64,000 bases of DNA from an uncultured Bacilli bacterium (GTDB taxonomy: Bacteria > Bacillota_I > Bacilli_A > RF39 > UBA660). Both the position numbers and the translations under genes were made by a program. Within the stretch, counting starts at the first letter, position 1, and the number at the start of each line of letters is the position of its first letter. Shown here piece by piece: positions 37,236 to 64,000 of the stretch. Location: the NCBI GenBank assembly GCA_944358415.1, contig CALVRA010000002.1, positions 25,769 through 89,768 of the forward strand, given 5' to 3'. The notes beneath the pieces are model-generated. The model searched no databases, was not told the DNA's origin, and saw nothing but the letters and a program-made list of their open reading frames with translations.

Positions 37236-37281
37236 ATTTTATTTGGCATTTTGTTCTGTTATATTGATTGTGGTGATATTT

Positions 37282-38478
37282 ATGATAATAAGAGAAAGAT
37301 ATTTATCTAGAATAAGAGAATTTTATGATTCTAATTTAATTAAAATTATTACTGGAATTAGGCGATGCGGAAAGTCAGTTCTTTTAAAGCAAATAATGAA
37401 TGAATTAATAGATAATGGTATAGATGATAGTCATATTATATATATTAATTTTGAAGATGTGGAATATTCTTTTATTAGTGATTATTTAGAGTTAAATAAG
37501 TATATTAAAGATAAAATTATTGATAAAAATAAGTACTATTTGTTTTTTGACGAGGTTCAAATGGTGGATAAATGGGAAAAAGTGGTTAATTCTTTTAAAG
37601 CGACTTTGAATGTTTCAATATTTGTAATAGGTTCTAATTCTAAACTTTTGTCAGGAGAACTTTCTACTTTATTATCTGGCCGTTATGTGTCATTTAAAGT
37701 TCAACCTTTTGTTTTTAGTGAGGTTATTGAATTAAAAAATTTAACTAATAAAAGAGATATTGAAGATGCTTTTGATGATTATTTACTTTGGGGAGGACTT
37801 CCACAAAGATTTGAATTTAAAACTACTGATGGTATGAAAACTTATTTATCTGATGTTTTTGATGCGATAGTTTTAAAAGACATTGTTAAACGCCATAATA
37901 TAAAAAATGTAGTATTATTTCAAAGAATTATGGAATATTTGGTGACAAACCCTAGTCAGTCGTTTTCTCCTACTAAAATGCTTGGTGAGTTTGAAAGAGC
38001 AAAAATACTAATGTCTACAAAAACGGTATATGAATGTTTAGCTTATGCGGAAGAGACTTTACTTATGAATAAAGTTCAAGCTTATGATGTTAGAGGTAAG
38101 CGAATTTTATCTAGGAATGATAAGTATTATTTAACTGATTTAGGATTGGGTCAAATTTTAAATGTTAATAAAAAAGTTCAATTTGGAGCTTATTTGGAAA
38201 ATATTGTTTATAATGAACTAGTGTATAGAGGATATAATGTAAGTATTGGAAACAATAATGGCAAGAAAATTGATTTTGTGGCAGTGAAACATAATTTGAT
38301 AGAGTATTATCAAGTGTCTTATTCACTTCAAAATGAAGAGACTTTGGAAAGAGAGTTTGGGGCTTATAAAAATATAGATGATAATTTTCCAAAGTATGTG
38401 ATTTCGACTGACAAGTTAGATTATTCACAAAATGGTATTATTCATAAGAATATTATTGATTGGTTATTGGAGAGTTAA
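37282..38478 (+). CDS. DUF4143 / AAA+ superfamily ATPase (COG1373-type)
   Basis: P-loop IITGIRRCGKSVLLKQI. Walker B LFFDEVQ. Typical ~400-aa length. Confidence 0.65.
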   Translation: MIIRERYLSRIREFYDSNLIKIITGIRRCGKSVLLKQIMNELIDNGIDDSHIIYINFEDVEYSFISDYLELNKYIKDKIIDKNKYYLFFDEVQMVDKWEKVVNSFKATLNVSIFVIGSNSKLLSGELSTLLSGRYVSFKVQPFVFSEVIELKNLTNKRDIEDAFDDYLLWGGLPQRFEFKTTDGMKTYLSDVFDAIVLKDIVKRHNIKNVVLFQRIMEYLVTNPSQSFSPTKMLGEFERAKILMSTKTVYECLAYAEETLLMNKVQAYDVRGKRILSRNDKYYLTDLGLGQILNVNKKVQFGAYLENIVYNELVYRGYNVSIGNNNGKKIDFVAVKHNLIEYYQVSYSLQNEETLEREFGAYKNIDDNFPKYVISTDKLDYSQNGIIHKNIIDWLLES

Positions 38479-48501: not shown

Positions 48502-49386
48502 ATGACTAATTTATTAGAAAAACCAGTTATAGATGAAAATAAGTATATGAACAGTATGTATGACCGAATATTTAAATCCATTGTTCAAAATCCGAATTTT
48601 AGGAAATTACTTTCACTTATAATAAGCGAGGTAACTGATTTTTCTGCAAGTTTTATTTATGAAAATTTAGTTTTTGTAAATACGGAGCTACCTATAGAAA
48701 ATAAGGGTGATAGGGGAATGATAACGGATATACTAGCTTATGTAGATGGGTCTATTATAAATATAGAAGCTAATAAGTTTTTTAAACTTAGCTCTATTGG
48801 TAAGAATAATTTATATCATCATAAAATAGCTTATGAGCAATATAAAAGAGGTAAAGATGTAGATGACACAGTCACTTTACAGATTAATTTTAATATGATA
48901 AGGACGTTTGGAAACAAATTGTTTGAAGTATTTAGTATGAAAAATGAAGATGGTACTTACAGGGATGAGGAAAATTTTAAAAGAGTGCATATAAATATGG
49001 CAAATCCTTTAAAAAAGTATTATACTAATAGTGAGCTTTCAAAAATTGAAAAAGCATTAGTGATATTTCAAATTACTAATAAAGATGAGGTTTGGAAGTT
49101 AGCTAAAGGAGATGAGGATTTAGAGGCTATGGCGAAGATAATTGATGATATAAACAAAGATGAAGAAATTATAGGTGCGTATTACAAAGATGAAATGGAT
49201 GAATGGATGAAAAAGATTGATATTAATGAAGCTAAGAAAGATGGTCAAATTGAAGGTCATATAGAAGGTTCAAAAGAAAAAGCTTTAGAGATAGCTCGAA
49301 ATTTATTACATTTGGGCATAGATGTTCAAACTATTTCAAAAGCAACTGGTTTATTAGAAGAAGAGATTAACTCACTTAAAAGTTAA
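48502..49386 (+). CDS. Rpn/YhgA-like PD-(D/E)XK nuclease family putative transposase
   Basis: N-terminal …DRIFKSIVQNPNFRKLLSLIISEV…ITDILAYVDGSIINIEANKF… resembles the Rpn (TIGR01784) N-terminal nuclease region. Confidence 0.45.
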   Translation: MTNLLEKPVIDENKYMNSMYDRIFKSIVQNPNFRKLLSLIISEVTDFSASFIYENLVFVNTELPIENKGDRGMITDILAYVDGSIINIEANKFFKLSSIGKNNLYHHKIAYEQYKRGKDVDDTVTLQINFNMIRTFGNKLFEVFSMKNEDGTYRDEENFKRVHINMANPLKKYYTNSELSKIEKALVIFQITNKDEVWKLAKGDEDLEAMAKIIDDINKDEEIIGAYYKDEMDEWMKKIDINEAKKDGQIEGHIEGSKEKALEIARNLLHLGIDVQTISKATGLLEEEINSLKS

Positions 49387-50382: not shown

Positions 50383-50901
50383 ATGAGAGTTAAAGGTGGA
50401 ACTATTCATCGCGCACGCCGAAAGAAAGCTTTAAAACAAGCTAAAGGTTATTTCGGTAGTAAACATAGACTTTATAAAACTGCTAAAGAACAAGTAATGC
50501 ATTCAGGTGCTTATGCATATAGAGATAGAAGAAATAGAAAAAGAGATTTTAGAAAATTATGGATTACAAGAATTAATGCGGCTTGTAGATTAAATGATAT
50601 TAGTTATTCTAAGTTTATTGATGGTCTTAATAAGGCTAATATAGAGGTTAATAGAAAAATGCTTGCTGAGATTGCTATAGATGATTCTAAGGCATTTGCA
50701 GAACTTGTAAAAGCAGCAAAAGCTGCACTTGATGGAAAAGAGTATAAAGCAGTTAAGGTAGAAGTTAAAGAAGAGAAAAAAAGTGAAAGTACTGATTTAA
50801 GTAAAATGACAGTTGCTGAACTTAAACAATTAGCTAAGGAAAAAAAGGTTGAAGGTTATTCAACTATGAAAAAAGCTGAACTATTAGAAGCTTTAAAATA
50901 A
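50383..50901 (+). CDS. rplT: 50S ribosomal protein L20 with a ~55-aa C-terminal extension (Rho_N-like helix-hairpin)
   Basis: N-terminal ~118 aa are canonical L20 ([15 protein letters not shown]…). The extension ends …[31 protein letters not shown]. Confidence 0.8.
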
Positions 50902-50921
50902 GGGGTTAGTCCCTTTTTTTC
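50899..50921 (+). terminator. terminator after rplT
   Basis: AAGGGG-ttagt-CCCTT followed by TTTTTTT. Confidence 0.45.
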
Positions 50922-50936
50922 TTAGAAAGGGGTTTT

Positions 50937-51428
50937 ATGAAAAATTTATATATTGATTTTGATGGAGTTATTTATAATTCTATCGAAGTGTCTTATAAAC
51001 TAGCTGAAGAGGAAAATGTTTCAAAGGATTATGAAAGTTATTATCAGTTTTTTAAAAATTTGGACTGGTGTGATGTTTTAGAAAAAAGTACAGAAATTAA
51101 TGATGCTTTTAATTGTATAAAAAAGATTATAGATAGTGGAAAATTTAATGTTTTTATTTTGACCCATGTTATTTCTTTAAAAGAAGCTGAATTAAAAATT
51201 GGTTTAATTAGAAATCATTTGGATGATGTAACGATTATTCCAGTTCCTAAAAGGGTGTCAAAAAATAAAATGGTTAAGGTGAATGGAGCTATTTTAGTAG
51301 ATGATTATCCTGAAAATTTACGTGAATGGGAGAGGGACGGAGGCATTTCCGTTAGATTTGATTTAGATATGGATGGAAAAGGTTTTCCAGTTATCTGTAA
51401 GCTTGATGAACTTGTAGAAATGTTTTAA
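50937..51428 (+). CDS. HAD-superfamily 5'(3')-deoxyribonucleotidase-like protein
   Basis: HAD motif I IDFDGV at the N-terminus. ~160-aa size is typical of NT5C-like bacterial proteins. Confidence 0.45.
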   Translation: MKNLYIDFDGVIYNSIEVSYKLAEEENVSKDYESYYQFFKNLDWCDVLEKSTEINDAFNCIKKIIDSGKFNVFILTHVISLKEAELKIGLIRNHLDDVTIIPVPKRVSKNKMVKVNGAILVDDYPENLREWERDGGISVRFDLDMDGKGFPVICKLDELVEMF

Positions 51429-51485
51429 AACTATGTACAAAATGCATGAAAAAATGGTATAATTGTACTACTTGGAGATGAGGAT

Positions 51486-52478
51486 ATGTTAGTATTAGCC
51501 AAAGCTGTACTGTCGATTATGTTAGGATTCTCTGTTTCAGTCGTTTTTGGCTACTTTGCTATTAAATGGCTGAAGAAGAAACATATAAGACAGCAAGTTA
51601 GTAACACTTTAGGAGAAAGACATAAAAGAAAAAATGGAACGCCGACGACTGGAGGTATAATATTTATCATTCCGACGGTTTTGATAATGATAGCTCTGGT
51701 ACTTACGGGAAAGGTCGAGTTTTCGACAAACTTATTTATTGTATTATTTGTATTTATTGCTTATGCAATATTTGGGTATATTGATGATTATTTAATTATA
51801 AAACGGCATACAAATGATGGACTTAGTATATTTTGGAAACTCGTTTTACAAATAATTGTCGCTTTAGTATTTTTCTATATGTTTTTAAGTAGTGGTAATG
51901 ATCCGATTGTGGATATTCACACTTTGGGTATAAAGCTGGACTTGGGATGGCTTTATGGAATGTTTTTACTATTTGTTTTAGTTGGTAGTAGTAATGCGGT
52001 GAATATTACAGACGGACTTGATGGACTTGCTGGTGGACTTTCAGCTATTGCGTTTTTTGCTTTTGGTATTATTACTTGGGGTGCTAATTGGGCTTCTGGT
52101 AATGAAGCAATCGCGATTTTCTGTTTTGTTTTAGTTGGATCGCTTGTTGGATTTTTGGTTTATAATTGTTATCCAGCTAAGGTCTTTATGGGTGATACAG
52201 GATCTTTATCTTTAGGTGCGGCACTGGCTAGTGTGGCAATTATTACGAATCACGAAGTAACACTTATTATTGTGGCCGGTGTATTTGTTATCGAGACTTT
52301 GAGTGTTATTATACAATGGATTGCAATAAGTAAATTTCATACTAAAGTATTTTTAATGGCACCACTTCATCATCATTTTGAGAAGTTAGGCTGGTCTGAA
52401 TCAGATGTTGTTAGGTTATTTTGGTCAGCTGGTTTACTACTTAGTATGGTAGCTATTGGCTTTGGTGTGTGGATATAG
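51486..52478 (+). CDS. mraY: phospho-N-acetylmuramoyl-pentapeptide transferase MraY
   Basis: Polytopic membrane protein. …NGTPTTGG… loop. …NAVNITDGLDGLAGG…. HHHFEK C-terminal motif. Confidence 0.8.
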   Translation: MLVLAKAVLSIMLGFSVSVVFGYFAIKWLKKKHIRQQVSNTLGERHKRKNGTPTTGGIIFIIPTVLIMIALVLTGKVEFSTNLFIVLFVFIAYAIFGYIDDYLIIKRHTNDGLSIFWKLVLQIIVALVFFYMFLSSGNDPIVDIHTLGIKLDLGWLYGMFLLFVLVGSSNAVNITDGLDGLAGGLSAIAFFAFGIITWGANWASGNEAIAIFCFVLVGSLVGFLVYNCYPAKVFMGDTGSLSLGAALASVAIITNHEVTLIIVAGVFVIETLSVIIQWIAISKFHTKVFLMAPLHHHFEKLGWSESDVVRLFWSAGLLLSMVAIGFGVWI

Positions 52479-52491
52479 GAGGAATTAAATT

Positions 52492-53745
52492 ATGGCAAAA
52501 AGTGAAAAAGAAATTGAAATTGTTGTTGAAGGAAAAGAATGGGAAGAGGCTTTAGATAAAGCATTTAAGAAAGCTAATAAAAATGCGAAGATTGATGGTT
52601 TTAGACCTGGTAAAGCTCCAAAAGATGTATTTTTAAAGAAATATGGTAAAGAGTCTTTATATATGGATGCTGCAGATATGGCAGCTGATATAGCTTATCA
52701 AAAGTTACTTACTGAGTACGCTTCAGATGTACAAGAGTTAGTGGCTCGTCCTGATATTGCTTTAACTGATATTAATGACGAAAAAGTGACTTTTAAATTT
52801 ACTTTAACTATGAAACCAGAAGTTAAACTTGGTAAATATAAAGGTTTAGGTATTAAGAAAGATGAAGTAAAAGCTGAAGCTGAAGAAATTGAAGATGCTA
52901 TTAAACATATGCGTGAAAGATATGCGGAGGATGTTTTAAAAGAAGGGGCTATTGCTGATGGTGATGTAGCAGTTATCGATTTCGAGGGTTTTATCGATGG
53001 TAAGGCTTTTGAAGGTGGTAAGTCAGAAAATTATTCTTTAAAAATTGGTAGTGGAACATTTATTCCTGGGTTTGAAGATCAGTTAATTGGACTTAAATCA
53101 GGTGATAAAAAAGATGTTAAGGTTACTTTCCCAGAAGATTATCATGCTGAAGATTTGAAAGGTAAAGATGCTATTTTTAAAGTAACTGTTCATGAAGTTA
53201 AAGAGGTTAAAATTCCAGAATTAGATAAGGATTTCTTCGAAGATTTAGGTATGGAAGGAATTAATACTAAAGAGGAATTAGAAGCACAAATTTCTGAAAA
53301 TATTTTGGCTCGTAAGGAAATGGAAGCTGAAAATAAATATTTAGATGAATTACTTGAGGCAGCAGCTAAAGATGTTAAGGTTGAAATTCCTGAAGCTATG
53401 ATTAATGAAGAGTTAGATAGAATGGTGGCACAATATGCTGATCATTTGAAAATGCAAGGTATTACTATTGAACAGTTCTATCAATTTACAAATTCTGATG
53501 AGCAAGCTTTAAAGGATCAAATGAGACCAGAAGCTATTAAGAGAATTACTTATAGATTAATGCTTGAAGAAATTGCTAAAGAAGAGAAAATTGAAATTGA
53601 TGATAAAGAAGCTAAGGAAGAGGCTAAGAAGTTAGCTGAAAAATACCAAATGAAAGAAGATGAATTCTTAAGTGCATTTGGTGGACTTGATATTGTTAAA
53701 TACGATATGAGAATGCGCAGGGCTATGGAAATCCTAAAGAAATAG
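52492..53745 (+). CDS. tig: trigger factor
   Basis: …DGFRPGKAPK… ribosome-binding signature. Central FKBP-type PPIase domain (…VIDFEGFIDGKAFEGGK…). 417 aa. Confidence 0.85.
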   Translation: MAKSEKEIEIVVEGKEWEEALDKAFKKANKNAKIDGFRPGKAPKDVFLKKYGKESLYMDAADMAADIAYQKLLTEYASDVQELVARPDIALTDINDEKVTFKFTLTMKPEVKLGKYKGLGIKKDEVKAEAEEIEDAIKHMRERYAEDVLKEGAIADGDVAVIDFEGFIDGKAFEGGKSENYSLKIGSGTFIPGFEDQLIGLKSGDKKDVKVTFPEDYHAEDLKGKDAIFKVTVHEVKEVKIPELDKDFFEDLGMEGINTKEELEAQISENILARKEMEAENKYLDELLEAAAKDVKVEIPEAMINEELDRMVAQYADHLKMQGITIEQFYQFTNSDEQALKDQMRPEAIKRITYRLMLEEIAKEEKIEIDDKEAKEEAKKLAEKYQMKEDEFLSAFGGLDIVKYDMRMRRAMEILKK

Positions 53746-53794
53746 GGTTTCTTTTTTTATACATAAGGAAAGTGCATTTTTGAATGATAAACAA

Positions 53795-54380
53795 ATGTTT
53801 GTAAAAAAGTTATTTACAAATATAACTATTCGTGATATAGTGATTGCAATATAGATTGAAGGTGATGATATGAAAATACTAAAAGGTTATGTATTTAGGA
53901 TGTATCCTAATGAAAATCAAGAAGAGTTAATTAATAAAACTATTGGTTGCTCTAGATTTGTATATAATTATTTTTTGGATGATAAAATTAAAGAATATAA
54001 AAAAACTGGCAAAAGTAAAAGTGCTTATGACCAAATAAAATTAATACCATCACTTTCTAAAGAAAAACCATGGCTAAAAGAAGTAGATAGCTGCGCACTT
54101 AGAAATAGTCTATTTAATTTAGAAGATGCTTATAAAAGATTTTTTAATGGAAATGGTTATCCTAGATTTAAAGCAAAAGGAGTACATGAAAGTTATAAAA
54201 CTAATAATATTAAAAGTAGTTATAAAGGAAATAATTATAATAGTATAAAATTAGATTTAAAAAATAAAACAATAACTTTACCAAAGTTAAAAGAAGTAAA
54301 GATAAGAGGATATAGAAATAAAGAAGTAATACCTGGTGAGGTTAAAAGTGCTGTAATTAAGAAAGATGCCGGTAAATATA
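53795..54380 (+). mobile_element. second, 3'-truncated copy of the IS605-family tnpB element (left end plus 5' ~510 nt of tnpB)
   Basis: Left end is conserved with copy 1 (TTTACAAATATAACTATTCGTGATATA). It has a perfect TTTGTAAA-aaagttat-TTTACAAA subterminal hairpin. Homology to copy 1 ends abruptly near 54380. Confidence 0.55.
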
Positions 54381-54532
54381 ATATGTTTGGACTGTTTTGC
54401 TTGTCGCCTAATTCTAGTAACTCTAACAACGTGTTCAATGTGAACAACAACGGCAACGTCAACAACAACAACGCGAACAATACGAACAACGCGGTCCGCC
54501 CTTTGAACTCTCTAAAACACTATGGATTATGA
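53870..54532 (+). pseudogene. tnpB: tnpB fragment (N-terminal ~170 aa of TnpB) reading through into an unrelated Asn/AAC-rich tail
   Basis: ~75% identical to TnpB residues 1-170 of copy 1. It then diverges (…DAGKYNMFGLFCLSPNSSNSNNVFNVNNNGNVNNNNANNTNN…). The RuvC-II/III and zinc-finger regions are absent. Confidence 0.7.
54400..54505 (+). repeat. candidate DGR template repeat (TR): AAC-codon-rich, GC-rich segment ending in a GC-rich IMH-like stretch
   Basis: TCT AAC AAC GTG TTC AAT GTG AAC AAC AAC GGC AAC GTC AAC AAC AAC AAC GCG AAC AAT ACG AAC AAC GCG GTC CGC CC, with 15 in-frame AAC/AAT codons. GC content is far above the local background. Lies ~300 bp upstream of the Avd/RT genes. Confidence 0.45.
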
Positions 54533-54579
54533 ACTAATATGGTCATAATGAAAAGATTAGAGAATAAGTATTGTCACAA

Positions 54580-54614
54580 GTTAGGAAAACTACATCGACA
54601 AATTGTTTCCTAAC
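54580..54614 (+). other. 9-bp stem hairpin between the candidate TR and the accessory genes
   Basis: GTTAGGAAA-(17 nt loop)-TTTCCTAAC. Confidence 0.35.
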
Positions 54615-54736
54615 TAAATATTAAATATAGTCAGAGATGTTTCTAGTAAAATTGATTATTAAATATGTCCTGGTGATTAGTTAATAATCTATAATATTTG
54701 AAAGAGATATGATATGAGAAAAACTATATTTTTTTA

Positions 54737-54782
54737 GCAGTACCAATTAGGGATTAGTCCCTTATTTGATACTGCTTTTTTG
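54737..54782 (+). terminator. nested hairpin plus T-run (terminator-like) upstream of the MutS-domain gene
   Basis: GCAGTA…AGGGA-ttag-TCCCT…TACTGC followed by TTTTTT. The inner AGGGA-TTAG-TCCCT hairpin is near-identical to the rplT terminator at 50901. Confidence 0.4.
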
Positions 54783-54793
54783 TTGGAGGTTGT

Positions 54794-55204
54794 ATGATAA
54801 AAATAATTGATAAATATAATTTATATAAAAATAAATATCCAAAATGTGTAGTTTTAATGAAGGTTGGTATTTTCTACGAGTGTTATGGTGAGGATGTATA
54901 TGTTTTAAATAACTTATTTAGTTATAAAATTAAAGATTTTAATGGTATAAAAAGAGTTGGTTTTCCTATTAACAGTTATGATAAGGTAATTTCAAAGTTT
55001 AAGAGTTTTAAGATAAATTATGTAATTATTGAAGATGATGATATAACACGTAAGAAGTTTAATTTTAATAATTATGATAGGTTTGTCCCAGATGATTTGA
55101 ATTTGGAAGATAGAATTAATAAGGTATATGATAGGCTTAGGGTTTTAAAAAATAATTCAAAGATTATGGATGTATTGGATAAAGTTGAGGAAATTTTATG
55201 GTAG
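54794..55204 (+). CDS. stand-alone MutS domain I (mismatch-binding domain)-like protein, DGR-associated
   Basis: …YNLYKNKYPKCVVLMKVGIFYECYGEDVYVLNNLFSYKIKDFNG–IKRVGFPINSYDKVISKFKSFKINYVIIED… aligns block-for-block with MutS domain I (…[43 protein letters not shown]…[30 protein letters not shown]). ttggaggttgt RBS. Overlaps the avd start. Confidence 0.55.
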   Translation: MIKIIDKYNLYKNKYPKCVVLMKVGIFYECYGEDVYVLNNLFSYKIKDFNGIKRVGFPINSYDKVISKFKSFKINYVIIEDDDITRKKFNFNNYDRFVPDDLNLEDRINKVYDRLRVLKNNSKIMDVLDKVEEILW

Positions 55205-55548
55205 ATAATTTTAGGGTAGTGATTAATATAAAAAAAACAATTTTATATTTAGATAAGATTATTACTAATTTCCCGGCTAAAGAAAAAGTTCTTAGGGACA
55301 AAATTAGTCAAACGATGTATGATATTTTAGAGTTTACATATATGGCAAGTGAGTTTAAGGATAAGCGGACATATTATCAAACAAGGATAGTTGTTAATAT
55401 TAAAATGACTGATTTTTATTTGAAGACGGCAGTTGATAAAAAGTATATTTCTTACAAAAAATATCAGAAAGTTTCTTTACATTTATTAGATATTTTAAAA
55501 CAGATTTATGGATGGATGAGAAATGAAAAGAAGACGGAATCTATATGA
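55198..55548 (+). CDS. avd: Avd-like accessory variability determinant (small basic four-helix-bundle family)
   Basis: 116-aa basic helical protein. Immediately upstream of the DGR-type RT and overlapping it by 26 nt, the canonical avd-rt arrangement. Confidence 0.55.
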   Translation: MVDNFRVVINIKKTILYLDKIITNFPAKEKVLRDKISQTMYDILEFTYMASEFKDKRTYYQTRIVVNIKMTDFYLKTAVDKKYISYKKYQKVSLHLLDILKQIYGWMRNEKKTESI

Positions 55549-56683
55549 TAGTGTTAGTATGGAAGATATTATAAAGGTTTATAGGAGACAAATTAGAGTT
55601 AATACTAAAAATAAATATAAGATTAAAAGATTTGAAGATTTTTATTCTATAAATATTAGCTGGGTTAAAAAGACTTTTGAAAATGAGAATTATGTGGGTG
55701 GGATGTACAATATATTTTTAATTCAAGAACCTAAGTATAGAATTATTATGAGTCAAAATATTTATGATAAGTTAATTAATCATGTGGTAGCAGCTAAGTT
55801 TTTATTACCTGTTTTAGATAGATGTTTGATTGAGACAAATATTGCGACAAGGTTAAATAAAGGTACGCATTTTGGAATTAAACTTATAAAAAAATATTTG
55901 AATAATTTAAAAGGTGAGACGATTTATGCACTTAAGTATGATATTAGTAAGTATTTTTATAATATAGACCATGAGATTTTGTTAGATTTACTTAATAAAA
56001 AAATTAAAGATAAAAAGGTTTTAGATATACTTAAAAAGATTATTTATTCACCTGATAAGGAATATGTTAATAGGACGATAGAAAAATTAAAGAATATGGA
56101 GATAGAGCGAATTTGTGGGTTAAATATAAGTGATAAAGAAAAGAATATTAAAATTAGAGAGATTGAGCAAATTCCTTTATATAAAAAAGGCAGAGGACTG
56201 CCGATTGGAAATATGACAAGTCAGATACTAGCTGTGTTTTACTTAAATGAGCTTGATCATTTTATTAAAGAAGATTTGGGGGCTAAGTATTATATAAGAT
56301 ATATGGATGATGGGATAATACTTTCTAATGACAAGGAATATTTAAAGAATTGTCTAAAGGAAATAGAAAAGGTGGTATTAAAGTATCGTCTTTGTTTGAA
56401 TAGGAAAACGAAGATTATTAATGTTAGTAAAGAAGGACTTGATTTTTTAGGGTTTAGATACTGTATTATAGATAATAAAGTAATACTGAAAGTTCGAAAA
56501 TTAACTAAGAAAAATTTTAAACGAAAAATTAAACTAATTTATGAAGAAAAAATTTCTTTAGAAAGTGGTTTAAGAATTATTAGTAGTTATAGGGGACATT
56601 TAAAGTGGGGAAATTGTTATAATTTAATGAAAACAACTTTAAAAATTAATTTTGAAAATTGTAAAATATACATTGATAAATAA
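55523..56683 (+). CDS. diversity-generating retroelement (DGR)-type reverse transcriptase
   Basis: N-terminus …RRNLYDSVSMEDI…. Motifs EPKYRIIMSQ, DRCLIETNIATRLNKGTHFG (NKGTH) and ALKYDISKYF (motif A Asp). LPIGNMTSQILAVFYLNELDHF carries the DGR-diagnostic IGxxxSQ in place of the QGxxxSP of group II and retron RTs. YIRYMDDGII is the YxDD box. 386 aa. Confidence 0.8.
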   Translation: MKRRRNLYDSVSMEDIIKVYRRQIRVNTKNKYKIKRFEDFYSINISWVKKTFENENYVGGMYNIFLIQEPKYRIIMSQNIYDKLINHVVAAKFLLPVLDRCLIETNIATRLNKGTHFGIKLIKKYLNNLKGETIYALKYDISKYFYNIDHEILLDLLNKKIKDKKVLDILKKIIYSPDKEYVNRTIEKLKNMEIERICGLNISDKEKNIKIREIEQIPLYKKGRGLPIGNMTSQILAVFYLNELDHFIKEDLGAKYYIRYMDDGIILSNDKEYLKNCLKEIEKVVLKYRLCLNRKTKIINVSKEGLDFLGFRYCIIDNKVILKVRKLTKKNFKRKIKLIYEEKISLESGLRIISSYRGHLKWGNCYNLMKTTLKINFENCKIYIDK

Positions 56684-56803
56684 TTTATGATATTGAAAAT
56701 AAAAAAATGTAGTTGTATATTGTACCTAATTAATGTTTGAAAAATAATTAAATGTACTTTAAAATGTTTTAATTTCTTTGTATAATTATAGTTGGTGGTA
56801 GCT

Positions 56804-57802
56804 ATGAAAAAAAAGAAAATTAGAAAGGGTTTGTTATTTATTATTTTGATTATACTAATTGGAACATTTTATTTTATCTTTTTTGATGAGGATAATGTAT
56901 TAACTAATAAAATTGGTGATAGTGTTGATGTGGCTTTAAAAAATATTACAAAAAGTACAGATGCATATAAGAAATGTATGAAAGGTATTTTAAAAGAAGA
57001 AGATTTTAGTGATAATTTAAAGAATAAGAAGAATGAGATAATTAGTTTATATAATGGGGTTAATGCGAATTTTATGTATACTGATTTGGAAAGTGATTAT
57101 AGTTTTGGTGAGGGTATAGATGATGAGTTATATGCGGCTTCAGTTACTAAATTACCAGCTGTTTTATATACTTATAGACTTGCGGATGAGGGAAATATTA
57201 ATTTGAATAAGGAGCTTACTTATTTGGCATCTTATAAAACTGGAGGCAGTGGAATTATACAAAATGATAGCATAGGAACTAAGTATAAGTTAAGTACTAT
57301 TTTAGAGTATACGATTAAATATAGTGATAATATAGGCTATGCGATGCTTTTAGATGAGCTTGGTGGAAGAAATAAAGTTAAAGAATATTGGTCTAGTTTA
57401 GGTTATAATATAAAGTATACAGATAATTTTGGTAATTTATCGCCAAGTCTTGGTAATGGGTATATTAAAGAGGTTTATAAGTATTATTTGACAGGAAAGG
57501 AAAATGCGAAGAAGCTTATAAATGATATGAAAGTATCTGATAATTTAGAGTATGTTAAAAGTGGTGATATTGAGGTAGCTCATAAGTATGGTGAGTATGT
57601 GGAAGGTGGAGGATATTATAATGATGTTAGTTTAAATTTTACTGAACATCCTTTTGCTTTGTCTATTACTAGTACTTTGGGTCTTACTGATAAGATGAAA
57701 AATTTATTTTTAGAAACACATAGGCTTTCTATAGAGTTTAATAATTTGTATTATCAGGAAAAAGAAAATTATTGTGTAGAAAAATCACATGTTTTAGGAT
57801 AA
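56804..57802 (+). CDS. membrane-anchored class A beta-lactamase-like / serine hydrolase family protein
   Basis: N-terminal TM helix. SxxK (AASVTKLPA) and SDN (YSDNIGY) motifs. tataat at 56782-87 just upstream. Confidence 0.5.
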   Translation: MKKKKIRKGLLFIILIILIGTFYFIFFDEDNVLTNKIGDSVDVALKNITKSTDAYKKCMKGILKEEDFSDNLKNKKNEIISLYNGVNANFMYTDLESDYSFGEGIDDELYAASVTKLPAVLYTYRLADEGNINLNKELTYLASYKTGGSGIIQNDSIGTKYKLSTILEYTIKYSDNIGYAMLLDELGGRNKVKEYWSSLGYNIKYTDNFGNLSPSLGNGYIKEVYKYYLTGKENAKKLINDMKVSDNLEYVKSGDIEVAHKYGEYVEGGGYYNDVSLNFTEHPFALSITSTLGLTDKMKNLFLETHRLSIEFNNLYYQEKENYCVEKSHVLG

Positions 57803-57838
57803 GAATACTAAAAAGATAGTATTTTTTCAATTGGGGGG

Positions 57839-59992
57839 GTGAAGTTTGTGTATGCGGATATTTTAGTAGAGGTTGTAACAAAAAGTACAGATAAGACTTT
57901 TACTTATAAAATTCCTGATGGTATGAATGCTTTAGTAGGTATGAGAGCTTTAGTTCCTTTTGGTAAAAGAAATCTTTTAGGTTTTATTGTGAAAATATAT
58001 GATAAAAAAGATTTTGATTATGAAGTAAAAGATATTATAGAAGTAATTGATGAATATCCTGTTTTAAATGAAGAGATGCTTGAACTTGGTAAATATATTA
58101 GTAAAAAAACTTTATCGCCTTTAACGATGGCATATCAAACGATGCTTCCTAGAGCTTTAAAAGCTAAGGAAAAAAATAGAATTAAGAAAAAAATGGTTAA
58201 GTATGTAAGGGTTTTAGAAACTAAGGAAGTTACTAGTTTAAAACAAAAAGATATTTTGGCATTGGTTTTAAAAAATGGTGAGGTGCCTAAAAGTGAAGTT
58301 AATAATATTTCTTCATCTGCTTTAAAAACACTTATTAAAAATGGTGTTTTAGAAGAGATAGAAAAAGAAGTTTATAGGTTAGATGATGATGTTATTTTAG
58401 AAAATAAAGAGTATGAACTTACATTTGAACAAAAAGAGGTTTTGAAAAAAATTAAGTTCAATTTATTTAAACCTTATTTATTGCATGGAGTGACAGGTAG
58501 TGGTAAAACTTTAGTTTATATTAAGTTAATTGAAAAGGTATTAAAACAAGGTAAGGAAGCTATTTTACTTGTCCCAGAGATTAGTTTAACACCACAAGTT
58601 GTGGATATTTTTAGAAAAAGTTTTGGTAAGGTCGTGGCTATTTTACACAGTGGTTTAAGTAATGGTGAAAAGTATGATGAGTGGAGGAAAATTGAAAGAA
58701 AAGAGGTTTCTATTGTTATAGGAGCAAGAAGTGCGATATTCGCACCATTTACTAATTTGGGAATCATTATTATTGATGAGGAACATTCTAGTACTTATAA
58801 ACAGGAAAATGTTCCTAGATATAATGCGATAGATATTGCATTAAAAAGAGGTAAAACTTATGAGATTCCAGTTGTTTTGGGTAGTGCGACACCTAGTATA
58901 GAAAGTTATACAAGAAGTAAAATGGGAATTTATGAGTTATTAGTTATGAAAAATAGAGTTAATAAAAGTTTACCTAAAGTATATTTAGTGGATATGAAAG
59001 ATGAGTTTAAAAAAGGTAATAGAGTTTTTTCAGAAATTTTTAAAGAAAAGGTTAATGATAGATTAAACAAAGGTGAACAAATTTTAGTTTTACTTAATAG
59101 AAGAGGTTATTCAACAGTAATTACTTGTCCAGAATGTGGTTTTACACATAAGTGTCCAAATTGTGATATTCCACTTATTTATCATAAAAAAGAAAATATG
59201 ATGAATTGTCATTATTGTAATTATAAAGTTCCAAGGTTAATTGAATGTCCAAATTGTCACAGTAAGAATATTAGTGCTTTGGGAATGGGAACTGAAAGGT
59301 TAGAGCGTTTAATTAAGGAAGAGTTTGATGGAGCGAATGTTGTTAGAATGGATCAAGATACAACGAGAGTAAAAGGAGCTCATAAAAAAATTATAGATGA
59401 TTTTAAGTCTGGAAAATACAATGTTTTAGTGGGAACACAAATGATTGCGAAGGGGCTTGATTTTCCTTTAGTTACTTTAGTTTGTGTAATCAATGGTGAT
59501 GCTTCTTTAAATGTTCCTGATTTTCGAAGCAGTGAAAGAACTTTTGAACTGTTAAATCAGGTAGCTGGTAGAGCTGGTAGGGATAAGTTACCTGGTGAGG
59601 TAATTATTCAAGGTTTTAATGTTAGTCATTACAGCATACAGTGTGCGATGAGAAATGATTATGAAGAATTTTATGATGAAGAGATGAGGATAAGAAAGGT
59701 TTTAAAATACCCACCTTTTTATAATCTTTGTTTGATTAAGGTAAGTGGCAAAATATATGATGAAGTATTTGATGAGGCTAAAAAAATAGCTAGTTATTTG
59801 AAAAATAATTTAGAGGATATTATTTTGGGACCTTCTTCTTCTAGTATGCCAAAGGTAAATAATATTTACTATGTCCAAATTATTATAAAGTTTAAGAATA
59901 CAAAGAATATTTTGGGTAGTTTAGAATTTATTAAAAATCATTATAAAAATAAGATAAATGTGGATATTGATTTAAATCCTTTTAGGATTTAA
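57839..59992 (+). CDS. priA: primosomal protein N' (replication restart helicase PriA)
   Basis: Walker A LHGVTGSGKT. DExH IIIDEEH. Cys4 zinc-binding region (CPECG…CPNCD…CHYCN…CPNC). 717 aa. Confidence 0.9.
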   Translation: MKFVYADILVEVVTKSTDKTFTYKIPDGMNALVGMRALVPFGKRNLLGFIVKIYDKKDFDYEVKDIIEVIDEYPVLNEEMLELGKYISKKTLSPLTMAYQTMLPRALKAKEKNRIKKKMVKYVRVLETKEVTSLKQKDILALVLKNGEVPKSEVNNISSSALKTLIKNGVLEEIEKEVYRLDDDVILENKEYELTFEQKEVLKKIKFNLFKPYLLHGVTGSGKTLVYIKLIEKVLKQGKEAILLVPEISLTPQVVDIFRKSFGKVVAILHSGLSNGEKYDEWRKIERKEVSIVIGARSAIFAPFTNLGIIIIDEEHSSTYKQENVPRYNAIDIALKRGKTYEIPVVLGSATPSIESYTRSKMGIYELLVMKNRVNKSLPKVYLVDMKDEFKKGNRVFSEIFKEKVNDRLNKGEQILVLLNRRGYSTVITCPECGFTHKCPNCDIPLIYHKKENMMNCHYCNYKVPRLIECPNCHSKNISALGMGTERLERLIKEEFDGANVVRMDQDTTRVKGAHKKIIDDFKSGKYNVLVGTQMIAKGLDFPLVTLVCVINGDASLNVPDFRSSERTFELLNQVAGRAGRDKLPGEVIIQGFNVSHYSIQCAMRNDYEEFYDEEMRIRKVLKYPPFYNLCLIKVSGKIYDEVFDEAKKIASYLKNNLEDIILGPSSSSMPKVNNIYYVQIIIKFKNTKNILGSLEFIKNHYKNKINVDIDLNPFRI

Positions 59993-60048
59993 AAAAGGTT
60001 ATTTGTATTTGTTTTAAAATGTGGTAAAATTATTATTAAGGTGATGAT

Positions 60049-61008
60049 ATGGATTTTGATAAGATTGAGATAAAAAAAGACCCAGTAATTATTTTTATGG
60101 GAACACCTGATTTTAGTGTCCCTGTTTTAGAGGGGCTTATTAGTAAATATAAGGTTAGGGCGATAGTTACGCAGCCTGATAGGCCAGTTGGAAGACATGG
60201 TGAGATTAAATATTCACCAGTTAAAGAGATAGCTTTAAAACATAATATTTTGTGCTTGCAACCAAATAAGATTAAAGAGGCTTTACAAGAGATTAATGTA
60301 TTAGAGCCTGATTTAATTATTACGTGTGCTTATGGACAGATACTTCCTTTGGAACTTCTTTTGATGCCAAAAATAGCTTGTATTAATGTTCATGCATCAC
60401 TTCTTCCAAAGCTTCGTGGAGGAGCTCCTATCCATCATGCAATTATTGATGGTTATAATAAAACAGGTATAACTATTATGTATATGGCTGAGGGTATGGA
60501 TAGTGGTGATATCATTAGTCAAAGGGAAACGGAAATTTCTGATGATGATACGGCTTCTAGTTTACATGATAGGCTTTCTATTATGGGACGTGATTTATTA
60601 CTTGATACTTTACCTAGTATATTAGATGGAACTAATAAAAGGATAGTTCAAGATGAGTCAGAGGTTACTTATGGTTTTAATATAAGTAGAAAAGATGAAA
60701 AGATAGATTTTAATAAGACTAAGAGAAAAATTGTTAATCAAGTTAGAGGATTAAATTCTTGGCCAGGGGCTTACTGCATTTTTGATAATAAGATTATGAA
60801 AGTATGGTCTTGTTATAGGTCTGATGAGATTTATGATAGGGCTTTACCTGGTGAGATAACGAAGATTTATCCAGATGGTTTTGGTGTGAAATGTGGCAAT
60901 GGTGAAGTGGTGTTTACGGAAATTCAACTTGAGGGAAAGAAAAAAATGAAGGCAATAGATTTTGTTAATGGTTATCATGATAAGTTAGTGGGAAAAGTTT
61001 TGAAGTAA
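60049..61008 (+). CDS. fmt: methionyl-tRNA formyltransferase
   Basis: …IIFMGTPDFSVPVLE…. Formyltransferase motif …NVHASLLPKLRGGAPIHHAI…. Position after priA, a commonly conserved arrangement. Confidence 0.9.
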   Translation: MDFDKIEIKKDPVIIFMGTPDFSVPVLEGLISKYKVRAIVTQPDRPVGRHGEIKYSPVKEIALKHNILCLQPNKIKEALQEINVLEPDLIITCAYGQILPLELLLMPKIACINVHASLLPKLRGGAPIHHAIIDGYNKTGITIMYMAEGMDSGDIISQRETEISDDDTASSLHDRLSIMGRDLLLDTLPSILDGTNKRIVQDESEVTYGFNISRKDEKIDFNKTKRKIVNQVRGLNSWPGAYCIFDNKIMKVWSCYRSDEIYDRALPGEITKIYPDGFGVKCGNGEVVFTEIQLEGKKKMKAIDFVNGYHDKLVGKVLK

Positions 61009-61009
61009 A

Positions 61010-61672
61010 ATGTTTAGAAAAATAAAAGAGAATCCTTATTATAAAAAATTTAAGGAAATGCGGGCTGACCCTAAGCTTAGACCAATTACATCACTTATTT
61101 TTTGGTTAGTGTTTATGGTTTTATTAATCATATTTGTTAGAGTGACTTCTAGTTCTGTTCCAAGAAGTACGTCTACAGAGGTAAAGCAAAATTTGTCTAG
61201 TTATGAATTTACGTATACTAATAATAGTGGAGTTATTTTTGGTAAAGCTGATAATGATAAATTAGAGTTTATTTTGGGAAATAACAGATATTACTATGAC
61301 GGTGAGAATGTTTATTTGATCAATGGAAGAAGTGCGAAGGTGATTTCTAATTTTGATTTAAATGTTTTAAAGATAACGCCAAAGTTTATAGAAAATTTAA
61401 TTAGTAATTTAACTTATAATACTGATGGAGAAGCTAAGCAATATGCAGTACCACTTTCAAGATTCATAAATTTATATGAATTTGATGTAGAGGTAAATAG
61501 TAGTAAAGCTGACAATTACAATGTTTTGGTAAATGTTTATGAAAAAGATAATGAGATTTATATGTATAAGTTAGATTTAAGTAATTATTATAAGTTTCGC
61601 TCTTTGAATGATAGTGGAATTTTGACGATTGATATTTATGATGATTTAGATGAAGTAATAGGAGGGGTATAA
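61010..61672 (+). CDS. hypothetical N-terminally membrane-anchored protein
   Basis: 220 aa. TM helix at residues ~25-45. No recognised motifs. Confidence 0.3.
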   Translation: MFRKIKENPYYKKFKEMRADPKLRPITSLIFWLVFMVLLIIFVRVTSSSVPRSTSTEVKQNLSSYEFTYTNNSGVIFGKADNDKLEFILGNNRYYYDGENVYLINGRSAKVISNFDLNVLKITPKFIENLISNLTYNTDGEAKQYAVPLSRFINLYEFDVEVNSSKADNYNVLVNVYEKDNEIYMYKLDLSNYYKFRSLNDSGILTIDIYDDLDEVIGGV

Positions 61673-61980
61673 TGTCAATTTCAGTTATTGTATTAATTAT
61701 TTTACTTGTATTAATTATAGTATTTTTTAGAGATTTTAATGCTTTTATATATTCGTTTGTAATGATTGATATATTTTTACGTATAGTTACATATTTAAAA
61801 ACATATTTACTTAAGGATAATGCTTTTGGATTTTTTGATTTTATTCCAGAGAGTATACCGGCTATTTTAAAATCGTTTGATTTAGGTAGTATGAATGATA
61901 TTGTTATGTTTTTATACGTGCTTGTGTATATGGTTTTCTTAGGTTTAATGTTTTCGAAGTTCGTCAACCGGAAGTTTTAA
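61672..61980 (+). CDS. hypothetical small membrane protein (3 TM)
   Basis: 102 aa. Start overlaps the upstream stop (TAATG). Confidence 0.3.
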   Translation: MSISVIVLIILLVLIIVFFRDFNAFIYSFVMIDIFLRIVTYLKTYLLKDNAFGFFDFIPESIPAILKSFDLGSMNDIVMFLYVLVYMVFLGLMFSKFVNRKF

Positions 61981-62030
61981 TTCGGCTGGCTTTTTCTTTA
62001 AAAAAAATGTATAATTAAATAGGTGGTTTT

Positions 62031-62582
62031 ATGTATGCATATATAAAAGGATATGTTAAGGATATAGAAAGTGATTATATAGTTTTAGACAATAATGGAA
62101 TTGGTTATTTGATTTATACGGCAAGTCCTTATTCTTTTGATATGGATAAAGAATATACTGTTTATTTATATCAGTATGTTAGAGAGGATGAAATTACTTT
62201 ATATGGGTTTAAAACGATAGATGAGAAAAAGTTATTTTTGAAACTTATTTCGGTTAAGGGTGTGGGGTGCAAGATGGCTTTACCGATGTTGGCAACTGGT
62301 TCACCTTCAGGAATAATTGACGCGATAGAAAGAGAAAATATTTTATATTTAAAAAAGTTCCCTAAGATTGGTGATAAGGTAGCTAGACAAATTATTTTGG
62401 ATTTGAAAGGTAAGCTTGCGAAAAGTGATGATAGTAGTAATTTAGTTAATGATGAACTTATAGAAGCTTTGAAGAGTTTAGGTTATAAAAATAGTGATAT
62501 TAATAAAGTTATTAAGAATGTTGACAGTTCTTTAGATATTGAAGTGCAGATAAAAGAGGCATTGAAACTTCTTTTGAAATGA
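62031..62582 (+). CDS. ruvA: Holliday junction DNA helicase RuvA
   Basis: MYAYIKGYV…LDNNGIGYLIY… N-terminal OB domain. …LISVKGVGCKMAL… HhH motifs. 183 aa. Confidence 0.85.
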   Translation: MYAYIKGYVKDIESDYIVLDNNGIGYLIYTASPYSFDMDKEYTVYLYQYVREDEITLYGFKTIDEKKLFLKLISVKGVGCKMALPMLATGSPSGIIDAIERENILYLKKFPKIGDKVARQIILDLKGKLAKSDDSSNLVNDELIEALKSLGYKNSDINKVIKNVDSSLDIEVQIKEALKLLLK

Positions 62583-62592
62583 GGTGAGATGA

Positions 62593-63594
62593 TTGGGAAG
62601 ATTAGTTAGTGGAGAAGAGATGGCGGAAGATAATTTTGAAACGTCTATTAGACCAGATAGTATTGATGAGTATATTGGACAAGCTGAATTAAAAGAAAAT
62701 TTGAATATATTTATGAAGGCGGCTAAGATGCGTGGAGAGGCTTTAGACCATGTTTTATTATATGGTCCTCCAGGGCTTGGTAAGACGACTATGGCTTATA
62801 TTATAGCGAATGAAATGGATGGAAATATAAAGACAACTAGTGGTCCAGCAATTGAAAAAAGTGGCGATTTGGCAGCTGTACTTTCTACTTTGGAGCCTGG
62901 GGATATTCTTTTTATTGATGAAATTCATAGAATTCCTAGGTTTATTGAGGAAATTTTATATTCAGCAATGGAGGATTTTAAACTTGATATAATAGTTGGA
63001 ACAGATGCTTCTAGTCGAAATATTACGATTGATTTACCTCCATTTACACTAGTTGGGGCAACTACTAGGGCAGGAGATTTGACTGGGCCTTTACGTGATA
63101 GGTTTGGTATTGTATCTAAGCTTAATTTTTATACAGAAGATGAACTTAAACAAATTGTACTTAGGACAAGTAGAGTTTTAAAATCGTCTATTTCTGAGGA
63201 GGCAGCAATGGAACTTGCGAAAAGAAGTAGAGGAACACCAAGAATAGCAAATAGACTTTTTAAAAGAGTTCGTGATTATGCTTTAGTTATGGGCGATGGC
63301 AATATTGATTTATCTATTACTAAGCTTGCTTTAGATAAACTTAAGGTAGATGCTTTCGGCTTAGATGCGACAGATTATAATTTACTTAGTTCAATTATTG
63401 AAAAATTTAATGGTGGTCCAGTTGGAATCGATGCTTTGGCATCTAGTATTGGTGAAGAGGCATCAACGATTGAAGATGTGTATGAACCTTATTTGCTTCA
63501 AAACGGTTTTCTTAAAAGAACAAGTAGAGGAAGAATGGTTACTGAAAAAGCTTATAAGTATTTGAAAAAAGGGGAACAAGATACTTTATTTTAG
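62593..63594 (+). CDS. ruvB: Holliday junction DNA helicase RuvB
   Basis: Walker [10 protein letters not shown]. Walker [10 protein letters not shown]. Sensor …LVGATTR…. 333 aa. Confidence 0.9.
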
Positions 63595-63605
63595 GAAGTG
63601 ATGAT

Positions 63606-64000
63606 ATGAAAACTGATGATTTTGATTTTTATTTACCTTTAGAGTTAATCGCACAAACACCTTTAGAGAAACGTGATACATCACGTCTTTTAGTTTTAGA
63701 TAGGAAAACAGGTGATATTAATCATAGACATTTTACAGATATTATAGATTATTTAAATGAAGGTGATAGTTTAGTTTTAAATGATACTAAGGTTATGCCA
63801 GCTAGACTTTATGGAGTTAAAGAGGAAACTGGGGCAGTAGTTGAGGTATTACTTTTAAAAGATAATGGTGATAATGTTTGGGAATGTTTGACTAAACCAG
63901 CAAAGAGGATAAAAGAGGGAACGGTTATTTCTTTTGGTGATGGTAAATTAAAAGCAAGATGTGTGAAGGTTTTAGACGAGGGAATTAGATATTTTAAGCT
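63606..64000 (+). CDS. queA: S-adenosylmethionine:tRNA ribosyltransferase-isomerase QueA, 5' part (runs past the window end)
   Basis: [36 protein letters not shown]…[16 protein letters not shown] is the canonical QueA N-terminus. Follows ruvB, as in many Firmicutes. Confidence 0.85.

Follow-up and report, generated by a model that had tools for sequence, protein, structure and literature searches.

A chromosomal diversity-generating retroelement of the MSL/Avd type, probably orphaned of its target by an IS-linked deletion, in an uncultured gut Bacilli

Results

The window (the whole 64-kb stretch of DNA analysed here) carries, at positions 54400-56683, a real diversity-generating retroelement (DGR) of the known MSL/Avd architecture, made up of a template repeat (TR), a spacer, the accessory genes MSL and avd and a reverse transcriptase (RT) gene (Table 1). 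We consider that this DGR is resident in the chromosome, that its target gene was lost through a deletion linked to an insertion sequence (IS), and that it was most likely orphaned recently and is decaying (probability of about 0.6). It is probably a non-phage, chromosomally resident element of known type that is seen in a state of decay, rather than a new system. In DGRs, a complex of the RT and Avd binds the TR-spacer RNA and primes cDNA from the spacer; the adenines of the TR are copied unfaithfully and the cDNA replaces the variable repeat (VR) at the 3' end of the target gene.

Table 1. Coordinates of the DGR and of the tnpB-related features in the window.
Feature	Position	Strand	Remarks
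5' fragment of tnpB-only IS200/IS605-family element	53798-54379	+	582 nt; Pfam HTH_OrfB_IS605, E 1e-18
Chimeric 220-aa ORF	53870-54532	+	TnpB residues 1-170 in frame with TR and start of spacer
Native TR flank, AATATGTTTGGACTGTTTTG	54380-54399	+	kept after the putative deletion; conserved in L103, L104 and L008
Template repeat (TR)	54400-54505	+	36 adenines, 17 AAY codons; homologous TRs in L103, L104 and L008
Spacer (Sp), part of presumed DGR RNA	54506-54793	+	structured (RNAalifold, single-sequence fold)
MSL, MutS-domain-I-like DGR accessory gene	54794-55204	+	136 aa, pI 9.0; Pfam MutS_I, E 7e-8
avd accessory gene	55198-55548	+	116 aa, pI 9.7; overlaps MSL by 7 nt and RT by 26 nt
DGR reverse transcriptase	55523-56683	+	386 aa, intact, all motifs present
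Full tnpB-only IS copy elsewhere in the window	35898-37257		

The reverse transcriptase and its accessory genes

The original prediction had recognised a DGR-type RT from its signatures, and our results agree with it. The EPKYRII, NKGTH, IGNMTSQ and YMDD motifs were all read in the RT ORF, the protein matched Pfam RVT_1 in a profile search, and its best solved relative was the RT of a Bordetella phage (bRT, PDB 8ub7, E 4.1e-34), aligned over residues 2-369. The best group II RT and the retron-type RT chains among the other PDB matches gave E values of 1.6e-9 and 1.8e-8, respectively. IGNMTSQ fits the [I/L]GxxxSQ motif of the DGR clade. PDB 8ub7 and its related entries are bRT-Avd-RNA structures.

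An RT of another class (retron, group II intron or Abi/DRT defence RT), accompanied by an AAC-rich segment that is an ordinary Asn-rich coding repeat, has practically no probability. Generic RT models (the PADLOC DRT/UG families and TIGR04416) do match the protein partially, but all of them scored far below their curated cutoffs, with 98 bits against 300 for TIGR04416 (group II) and, for the retron_St85_RT model, 36.6 bits against 235. The full-length best match to bRT and the adjoining avd and MSL genes argue against such an RT, as does the Rfam scan of positions 53000-57500, which gave no family match and so neither an intron nor a retron RNA. The AAC-rich segment is moreover homologous to the TRs of the RT relatives, and the adenine-specific TR/VR pairs of these relatives already refute this reading. 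Such pairs were found in 31 of the 40 RT relatives with enough upstream DNA (at least 1.8 kb). The scan used for them ran along ungapped diagonals, tolerated mismatches at adenines, was validated on L008 and L009, and accepted a pair with six or more A mismatches and no more than three non-A mismatches per 60 nt. A blastn self-comparison, which returned no pairs and missed the known L008 pair too, was dropped.

The basic ORF overlapping the RT had been taken for avd, and its match to Pfam bAvd (45.4 bits for a gathering score of 40), together with its pI and its overlap, bears this out. The same protein matched NCBIfam DivGenRetAVD with an E value of 2.7e-13 and 50 bits, under the curated 80. 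The MSL gene, which was absent from the original description, adjoins avd and the RT gene in most RT relatives; the MSL accessory class and the 'Architecture D' to which it belongs have been set out previously (PMC5758913).

The template repeat and the spacer

The AAC-rich, GC-rich TR lies where it had been predicted, whereas the predicted upstream distance of ~300 bp did not hold for the RT: the TR is ~290 bp from MSL and ~1 kb from the RT gene. AAC makes up 14, and AAY 17, of its 34 codons, its GC content is 46% as against 29% for the window, and its AAC-dense stretch is unique in the 64 kb on both strands. The 3' end of the TR is a GC-rich element (GCGGTCCGCCC, positions 54491-54501). The TR encodes ...LSPNSSNSNNVFNVNNNGNVNNNNANNTNNAVRP, the un-diversified form of the variable loop of DUF6273 targets, and 46 DUF6273 target proteins have a variable segment that fits the pattern of this peptide. 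The TR aligned base for base with those of L103, L104 and L008, each of which is paired to an adjacent VR. What the TR encodes is the C-terminus of DUF6273, a DGR target domain with a C-type-lectin-like fold. A search with the TR peptide itself returned TR-like fragments only and no targets.

Comparison of the spacer with those of the relatives showed a conserved core (positions 54519-54566) that persists in relatives whose RTs are as little as 57% identical. Within this core lies an invariant hairpin, UUAUGAAC-UAAUAU-GGUCAUAA, at positions 54527-54548. The 9-bp hairpin predicted after the TR is present at positions 54580-54614 as a perfect stem (10 pairs in the single-sequence fold). A long-range AU-rich stem is also part of the predicted fold. 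Directly 5' of the MSL ribosome-binding site (positions 54785-54789) lies a terminal hairpin followed by a U-run (positions 54736-54781). RNAalifold predicted 60 pairs in the spacer, with compensatory changes in 12 of them. The window and L007 are perfectly identical over 139 nt from the TR into the spacer, against a background of 83%. We had read this identity as selection and have downgraded that reading; recombination or a chimeric assembly is equally possible because the alleles of the spacer hairpin are mosaic among strains.

The tnpB fragment and its junction with the template repeat

The truncated tnpB with a breakpoint near position 54380 that had been reported is real. The fragment consists of a left end with a subterminal hairpin (positions 53798-53820) and of tnpB codons 1-170 (positions 53870-54379), with a promoter-like site (TTTACA-17-TATAGT with TG) at positions 53813-53841. 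It covers positions 2-160 of the 360 of the NCBIfam IS200_TnpB model. Comparison with the full-length TnpB of L104 (402 aa) gave 90% nucleotide and 94% amino acid identity, with homology stopping at position 54382; the junction, mapped against both the full-length TnpB and the native TR flank, was placed by inspection at 54379/54380, 20 nt upstream of the TR. With the tnpB-only IS200/IS605 elements of the IS1341 group the fragment shares the N-terminal HTH/WED part of TnpB, a promoter and the left end, but unlike intact members it stops after 170 codons. It has lost the RuvC/zinc-finger half, the omega-RNA region and the right end. Without the nuclease half and the omega-RNA this copy cannot be active, and it is relevant only as a deletion scar and because it may supply a promoter to the TR.

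The fusion creates a chimeric ORF, which gene callers annotate as an HTH_OrfB_IS605 protein; its C-terminal residues 178-216 gave a weak match (E 0.0065) to the C-terminus of DUF6273. We consider this ORF an annotation artefact of the fusion, not likely to encode a functional protein, and flag it since annotation pipelines call a protein there. The full-length tnpB elsewhere in the window adjoins an AAA_14/DUF4143 gene (positions 37243-38478). This gene was considered as the relocated neighbour of the L103 and L104 RT genes and rejected, the proteins being without detectable similarity.

The locus in relatives

In L104, the gene order is mraY, tig, ..., HTH, DUF6273 target (with VR), TR, MSL, avd, RT, ..., bla-like, priA, while in the window it is tig, truncated tnpB, TR, MSL, avd, RT, bla-like, priA. 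The L104 TR/VR pair has 0 non-A and 14 A mismatches, and its DUF6273 target gene with this perfect VR occupies the place taken by the tnpB fragment in the window; the cassette is therefore the resident and the IS the newcomer. That the fragment stands in place of the target likewise indicates that the target was lost to the IS and a deletion. In the syntenic relatives (tig ... bla-like, priA), the DUF6273 target and its VR are located ~300 bp upstream of the TR. Of the 31 paired relatives, 30 have the VR 200-700 bp upstream of the TR (up to ~1 kb in one weak pair); the exception is L082, whose TR is downstream of the RT gene.

These results contradict the proposal that the cassette had replaced the 3' half of tnpB and was hence mobile. 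It is very unlikely that the DGR cassette is itself mobile and either entered an IS605 tnpB or took the place of its 3' half. The tnpB ORF is indeed cut at codon 170 and runs straight into TR-flanking DNA, as such an event would leave it, but L103, L104, L101 and L007 (RTs 79-87% identical) have the cassette at the same site, between tig and bla-like/priA, despite different upstream neighbours. The 20 nt that precede the TR are also the native flank of L103, L104 and L008, which possess intact targets, no repeats bounding the cassette were seen, and the cassette genes have diverged as much as the flanking housekeeping gene (dS ~0.6-0.7).

The between-species dN/dS of the cassette genes, 0.05 for MSL (versus L007), 0.12 for avd and 0.18 for the RT gene, equals that of the flanking housekeeping gene. 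Within the species there were 11 substitutions, 5 non-synonymous and 6 synonymous, which hint at some continuing constraint if the compared strain carries the deletion, as this reading presupposes.

In L007, L101 and L102 the TR is cut by a tyrosine-recombinase element, and the L007 RT gene additionally carries a 145-bp deletion. The end of this same element abuts the TR at two depths in the genus.

Search for the variable repeat

The original prediction of no VR in the window was supported: an adenine-tolerant scan of both strands returned the TR alone. A cognate VR was found neither in GTDB representative genomes, JGI metagenomes and IMG/VR, searched with a pattern in which the adenines were replaced by N, nor among the 46 target-family proteins or in the fetched loci. 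Exact-protein look-ups with Tig, Avd, the RT and the fusion ORF returned the same arrangement only and no conspecific strain with an intact target. All the VRs recovered had at least 9 non-A mismatches to the window TR and were a better fit to the TRs of other strains. Three candidate VRs, those of L014 (P0009), L013 (P0027) and L015 (P0045), fitted at the protein level and were rejected with 9-12 non-A mismatches in their DNA; they fit the TRs of L103, L008 or L104 better than that of the window. Two Logan assemblies break within the TR, at position 54473; TR-like or VR-like reads from another place in those samples could be the cause.

It is possible, though we hold it with some doubt, that the DGR is fully functional and diversifies a remote DUF6273 target in trans, the loss of the adjacent one being harmless or a second target having existed before. 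A remote target can be envisaged since the scan of the organism's own genome covered ~67 kb of its 91-97 kb contig. The RT, Avd, MSL, TR and spacer are all intact, strong purifying selection acted on the cassette genes for most of their history, and non-phage DGRs with remote targets have been described (45 of 372; PMC5758913). The study that gave the window also yielded L014, a stand-alone fragment carrying a VR. L013 is an HTH-DUF6273 module with a diversified VR and no RT gene within 6 kb; the location of this target-family relative, far from any RT, speaks against an orphaned element. The mismatches of every recovered VR to the window TR and the negative pattern scans argue against a remote target, as do the adjacent upstream VR of 30 of the 31 paired relatives and the visible decay of sister lineages at the same locus.

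Discussion

The original prediction had left a choice between a remote target in trans and an orphan or degenerate cassette, and we judge that this was the right alternative; a recently orphaned resident DGR is the explanation that we prefer. Its recency is inferred from the between-species dN/dS of 0.05-0.18 and from the intact state of all ORFs. The three intact ORFs and the full TR would, however, also be expected of an active element acting in trans.

We infer the established retrohoming mechanism for this DGR as well. The target would have been of the kind found in the genus, a small C-type-lectin-like protein (DUF6273) whose gene lies ~300 bp ahead of the TR. A tnpB-only IS200/IS605 element would have inserted downstream of tig, and a later illegitimate deletion at 1-2 nt of microhomology would have joined tnpB codon 170 to the point 20 nt before the TR. 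This deletion would have taken out the remainder of the IS together with an upstream regulator and the VR-bearing target gene, leaving the TR, the spacer and the three proteins intact, and the predicted IS promoter could then read into the TR. Mutagenised cDNA may still be made in the window strain, with no detectable homing site.

It is improbable that the intact DGR machine, without a VR and transcribed from the IS promoter, has a role other than retrohoming, or that mobile elements land preferentially in the TR region. The landing-site reading draws on the IS junction 20 nt upstream of the TR and on the end of the tyrosine-recombinase element at the TR. TR-derived single-stranded DNA or RNA-DNA hybrids could attract mobile elements.

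The Bordetella phage BPP-1 DGR has the order mtd-VR, avd, TR, Sp, brt. Like it, the window DGR has an RT that aligns over its full length, Avd, a TR followed by a structured spacer, adenine-rich AAY codons in the TR and a GC-rich 3' end of the TR. However, the window RT, in which 50 additional residues are inserted (residues 162-212), is only ~30% identical to bRT. The window DGR also has MSL as an extra gene, its spacer precedes MSL instead of lying directly before the RT gene, and the element is chromosomal instead of phage-borne and is without a VR. Its RT is at most 35% identical to any INPHARED phage RT. With the MSL- and Avd-containing 'Architecture D' DGRs, which include the Legionella DGR (Wu et al. 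2018, PMC5758913), it shares a TR, MSL, avd and RT on one strand, a cellular setting and a C-type-lectin-type target. It differs from them in its order (TR-Sp-MSL-Avd-RT), in its host, an uncultured low-GC gut Bacilli, and in having no adjacent target or VR, owing to the putative IS-linked deletion.

DUF6273 targets are known from gut phages, namely Faecalibacterium prophages (PMC11792537) and phages nd4 and nd12, as 'tentaclins' (PMC10743442), and their VRs map to the C-terminal end of DUF6273 (PMC11792537, PMC10743442). The window TR encodes this same C-type-lectin-like part. The phage targets, however, are proteins for receptor binding or decoration that carry their VR in cis, while the targets of the relatives studied here are small cellular proteins of ~180-330 aa.

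Our analysis corrects an over-reading, in that this is an ordinary MSL/Avd-type DGR and not a mobile cassette within tnpB. Its modest value lies in a comparative series of one chromosomal DGR locus in several states, within a genus of uncultured gut Bacilli: L104 and L103 with intact pairs, the window without a target, and L007, L101 and L102 with a truncated TR, L007 having lost part of its RT gene as well. This series shows the course of DGR decay, and the natural target-less, otherwise intact cassette of the window could be used to test the roles of the RT, Avd and MSL without a VR.

Characterization of the DGR cassette

The cassette is a genuine diversity-generating retroelement (DGR) of known architecture whose adjacent target has been deleted. 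Every element described in the original prediction was found, namely the reverse transcriptase (RT) with its motifs, the overlapping accessory gene avd, the AAC-rich segment, the hairpin and the tnpB fragment. The best solved relative of the RT was the Bordetella phage bRT (8ub7; E 4e-34, residues 2-369), while group II intron and retron-type RT chains gave E values of about 1e-9 to 1e-7 and the curated group II, retron and defence RT models were all far under their cutoffs, in agreement with the DGR-type RT proposed. The RT and Avd thus stood as described, but a third gene had been overlooked; judged from its sequence, its product belongs to the MutS-domain-I-like (MSL) accessory class, by which Wu et al. 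(PMC5758913) define 'Architecture D' in their DGR survey.

Features of the cassette and related elements in the window
Feature	Position	Description
Second tnpB-only IS200/IS605-family element	35898-37257	Full-length; TnpB at 35929-37116 (395 aa; HTH, OrfB_IS605 and TNB domains)
HTH_Rpn_C ORF	48502-49386	294 aa; Rpn/PD-(D/E)XK recombination-promoting nuclease family
IS promoter	53813-53841	Best promoter-like site upstream of the TR
Chimeric ORF	53870-54532	Residues 1-170, N-terminal IS200/IS605 TnpB; frame continues into the TR
Template repeat (TR)	54400-54505	AAC-rich
Spacer core	54519-54566	48 nt; invariant hairpin
Hairpin	54580-54614	Two alleles, pairing preserved in both
Terminal hairpin and U-run	54736-54781	Directly 5' of the MSL ribosome-binding site; compensatory changes
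MSL	54794-55204	136 aa; MutS domain I match, E 7e-8
Avd	55198-55548	116 aa, overlaps RT start; Pfam bAvd above gathering score, NCBIfam DivGenRetAVD E 3e-13
RT	55523-56683	386 aa; EPKYRII, NKGTH, IGNMTSQ and YMDD blocks

Eighty more distant RT relatives (38-62% identity) were fetched, and pairs of TR and variable repeat (VR) were sought by a purpose-written adenine-tolerant diagonal scan validated on known pairs, the count being restricted to the 40 loci in which 1.8 kb or more of upstream DNA precedes the RT. Pairs were present in 31 of these 40 loci, and the order in the paired relatives was nearly always target-VR, TR, (MSL), Avd, RT. The clade of the window RT is therefore a DGR clade in function as well as in sequence.

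Template repeat, target family and spacer

The TR is the only AAC-rich stretch on either strand of the window. When translated, it shows a weak match to the final 38 positions of DUF6273, which has been described as a C-type-lectin-like target domain of DGRs with its variable region at the C-terminus (PMC11792537, PMC10743442). A search with the TR peptide, followed by one with the target fragment beside the related TR of locus L008, yielded 46 small DUF6273 proteins with the C-terminal scheme WWTLSPxSxxSxxVFxVxxxGxVxxxxAxxxxxAVRP, in which positions are fixed at adenine-free TR codons and vary at AAY codons. The TRs of the cassette's close relatives align base for base with that of the window, and each is preceded by a VR at a distance of about 300 bp; the L104 pair shows 14 adenine and 0 non-adenine mismatches across 104 nt. 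The AAC-rich segment, said in the original prediction to look like a TR, is thus homologous to TRs having adenine-specific VR partners. In L008 (206-330 versus 514-640) and L103 (277-400 versus 591-700), VR and TR differ by a 3-nt indel plus adenine substitutions, and both DGRs are apparently active; the TR copy of L008 additionally includes the target's complete C-terminal coding end.

The TR is followed by a non-coding stretch of about 290 nt. The core of this stretch is kept in relatives with RT identity as low as 57%, and the hairpin predicted after the TR was located downstream of this core. No Rfam family matched the spacer region. In the BPP-1 DGR the spacer primes cDNA synthesis, and by analogy this stretch most likely corresponds to the spacer of the DGR RNA.

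Loss of the adjacent target

The window (29% GC) is an exact part of a 90.8-kb metagenomic scaffold (ENA ERZ28614779); the same RT protein is also recorded in NCBI and Logan assemblies, and the nearest genome among GTDB representatives is a MAG labelled 'uncultured Bacilli bacterium'. The housekeeping genes infB, rbfA, infC, rpmI, rplT, mraY and tig precede the DGR on the forward strand, a class-A beta-lactamase-like (bla-like) gene, priA, fmt, ruvAB and queA follow it on the same strand, and no prophage signs were found among the surrounding genes. The HTH_Rpn_C ORF lies between rbfA and infC. The contig of a second sample (L002) is identical to the window over about 52000-64000, with 236 differences crowded into 50500-52000 (rplT, a 163-aa ORF and mraY), which looks like a between-strain recombination patch.

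The sequence 53798-54382 is 90% identical to the full-length tnpB-only element of L104, and the TnpB part of the chimeric ORF spans NCBIfam positions 2-160 of 360. When the window was compared with the complete tnpB and with the native sequence flanking the TR in L103 and L104, the junction fell at 54379/54380, where there is a microhomology of 1-2 nt; the 20 nt that separate it from the TR, starting at 54380, are native TR flank. In L104, whose RT is 79% identical, the gene order over the same interval of the chromosome is mraY, tig, IS3 transposase, RelB/YafQ, HTH, DUF6273 target with VR, TR, MSL, Avd, RT, AAA_14 fragment, full TnpB, bla-like and priA; L103 (RT 87% identical) also has VR-TR-MSL-Avd-RT. 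By this synteny, the cassette is resident at the tig/bla-like site and the tnpB fragment occupies the target's normal position. In the simplest history, an IS would have inserted downstream of tig, and an illegitimate deletion would then have removed the DNA between the middle of tnpB and a point shortly 5' of the TR. The cassette mobility suggested in the original prediction has the polarity reversed, since the cassette is resident in both relatives and the IS insertion and deletion would have come afterwards.

The second tnpB-only element of the window shares 83% DNA identity with the fragment 53798-54379 and is flanked by a tRNA U5-methyltransferase gene and an AAA_14/DUF4143 ATPase gene. 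In L104 (8250-9882 and 11171-13308), the full TnpB element splits the AAA_14 gene just 3' of the RT, and priA is in several ORFs, either pseudogenes or assembly indel errors.

Search for a remote target and state of the cassette

In line with the original prediction, the window showed neither a cognate VR nor a homologue of the target family (tblastn for the latter, best E 0.02). A pattern of 42 nt was taken from the 3' half of the TR, with N in place of each adenine. In GTDB representative genomes it matched just the sister cassette L007, apart from two chance matches in high-GC genomes, and in JGI metagenomes it matched nothing; in IMG/VR, neither it nor another pattern drawn from the 5' part of the TR gave a match. 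Exact-protein look-ups gave only the arrangement of the window. At the protein level, 3 of the 46 target-family proteins fit the window TR; they were rejected as cognate targets, their DNA having 9-12 non-adenine mismatches and fitting the TRs of other strains more closely. After these searches of the window, GTDB representatives, JGI metagenomes and IMG/VR, we favour a recently orphaned cassette (probability about 0.6). The main rival, a DGR still acting on a remote target outside the sampled DNA, is less likely.

In locus L013, an isolated HTH-DUF6273 target module (6143-7526) bears a diversified VR. It has def and ftsW as neighbours, and 6 kb around it are free of any RT or TR. Its target gene is broken into two ORFs, of 199 and 121 aa, and the module represents either a remote target or a remnant.

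In the comparison of the window with L007, dN/dS was 0.05 for MSL, 0.12 for Avd and 0.18 for RT, with dS of about 0.6-0.7 (saturated, about 2, for MSL). These ratios are near that of the flanking bla-like gene (0.14), and purifying selection of ordinary strength has therefore acted on the cassette genes during most of their past, any loss of function being recent. The conspecific fragment L098 (99.3% identical) showed 6 synonymous and 5 non-synonymous changes, a small sample. The window and L007 also share 139 nt of perfect identity against a background of 83%, which may come from recombination or chimeric assembly rather than selection. From the position of the IS promoter, transcription may now yield a chimeric RNA of tnpB', TR and spacer. 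Two sequencing runs gave Logan contigs (L003 and L004) that both begin exactly at 54473, inside the TR, which implies an assembly-graph branch (caused by a SNP, by another junction or by reads resembling the TR in the two samples).

Damage in sister lineages

In L007, L101 and L102 (RT 81% identical), a tyrosine-recombinase element abuts the TR and has removed the 5' part of it to two different depths, one in L007 and another in L101 and L102; three recombinase genes are on the L101 contig and two on L007, where the RT also has a 145-bp deletion. Among the more distant relatives, TR and VR are out of register in L019, and 5 of the 40 loci have no TR-like segment; incomplete cassettes are thus common in the clade.

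The tyrosine-recombinase element terminates in TTTTTGTCGTATAATATTTTTTGTCATAT, and the 12-mer TTTTTGTCGTAT is also at the contig ends of L007 and L008 (sites at L007 2088-2116 and 5415-5438, L101 about 5180-5210 and L008 745-777). The element is therefore probably present in several copies that interrupt assemblies; the one occurrence of TTTTTGTCGTAT in the window (15589-15600) is not above chance expectation.

The interest of this locus is mainly in the comparative series that it offers, with intact, orphaned and truncated states of a DGR at one chromosomal site.
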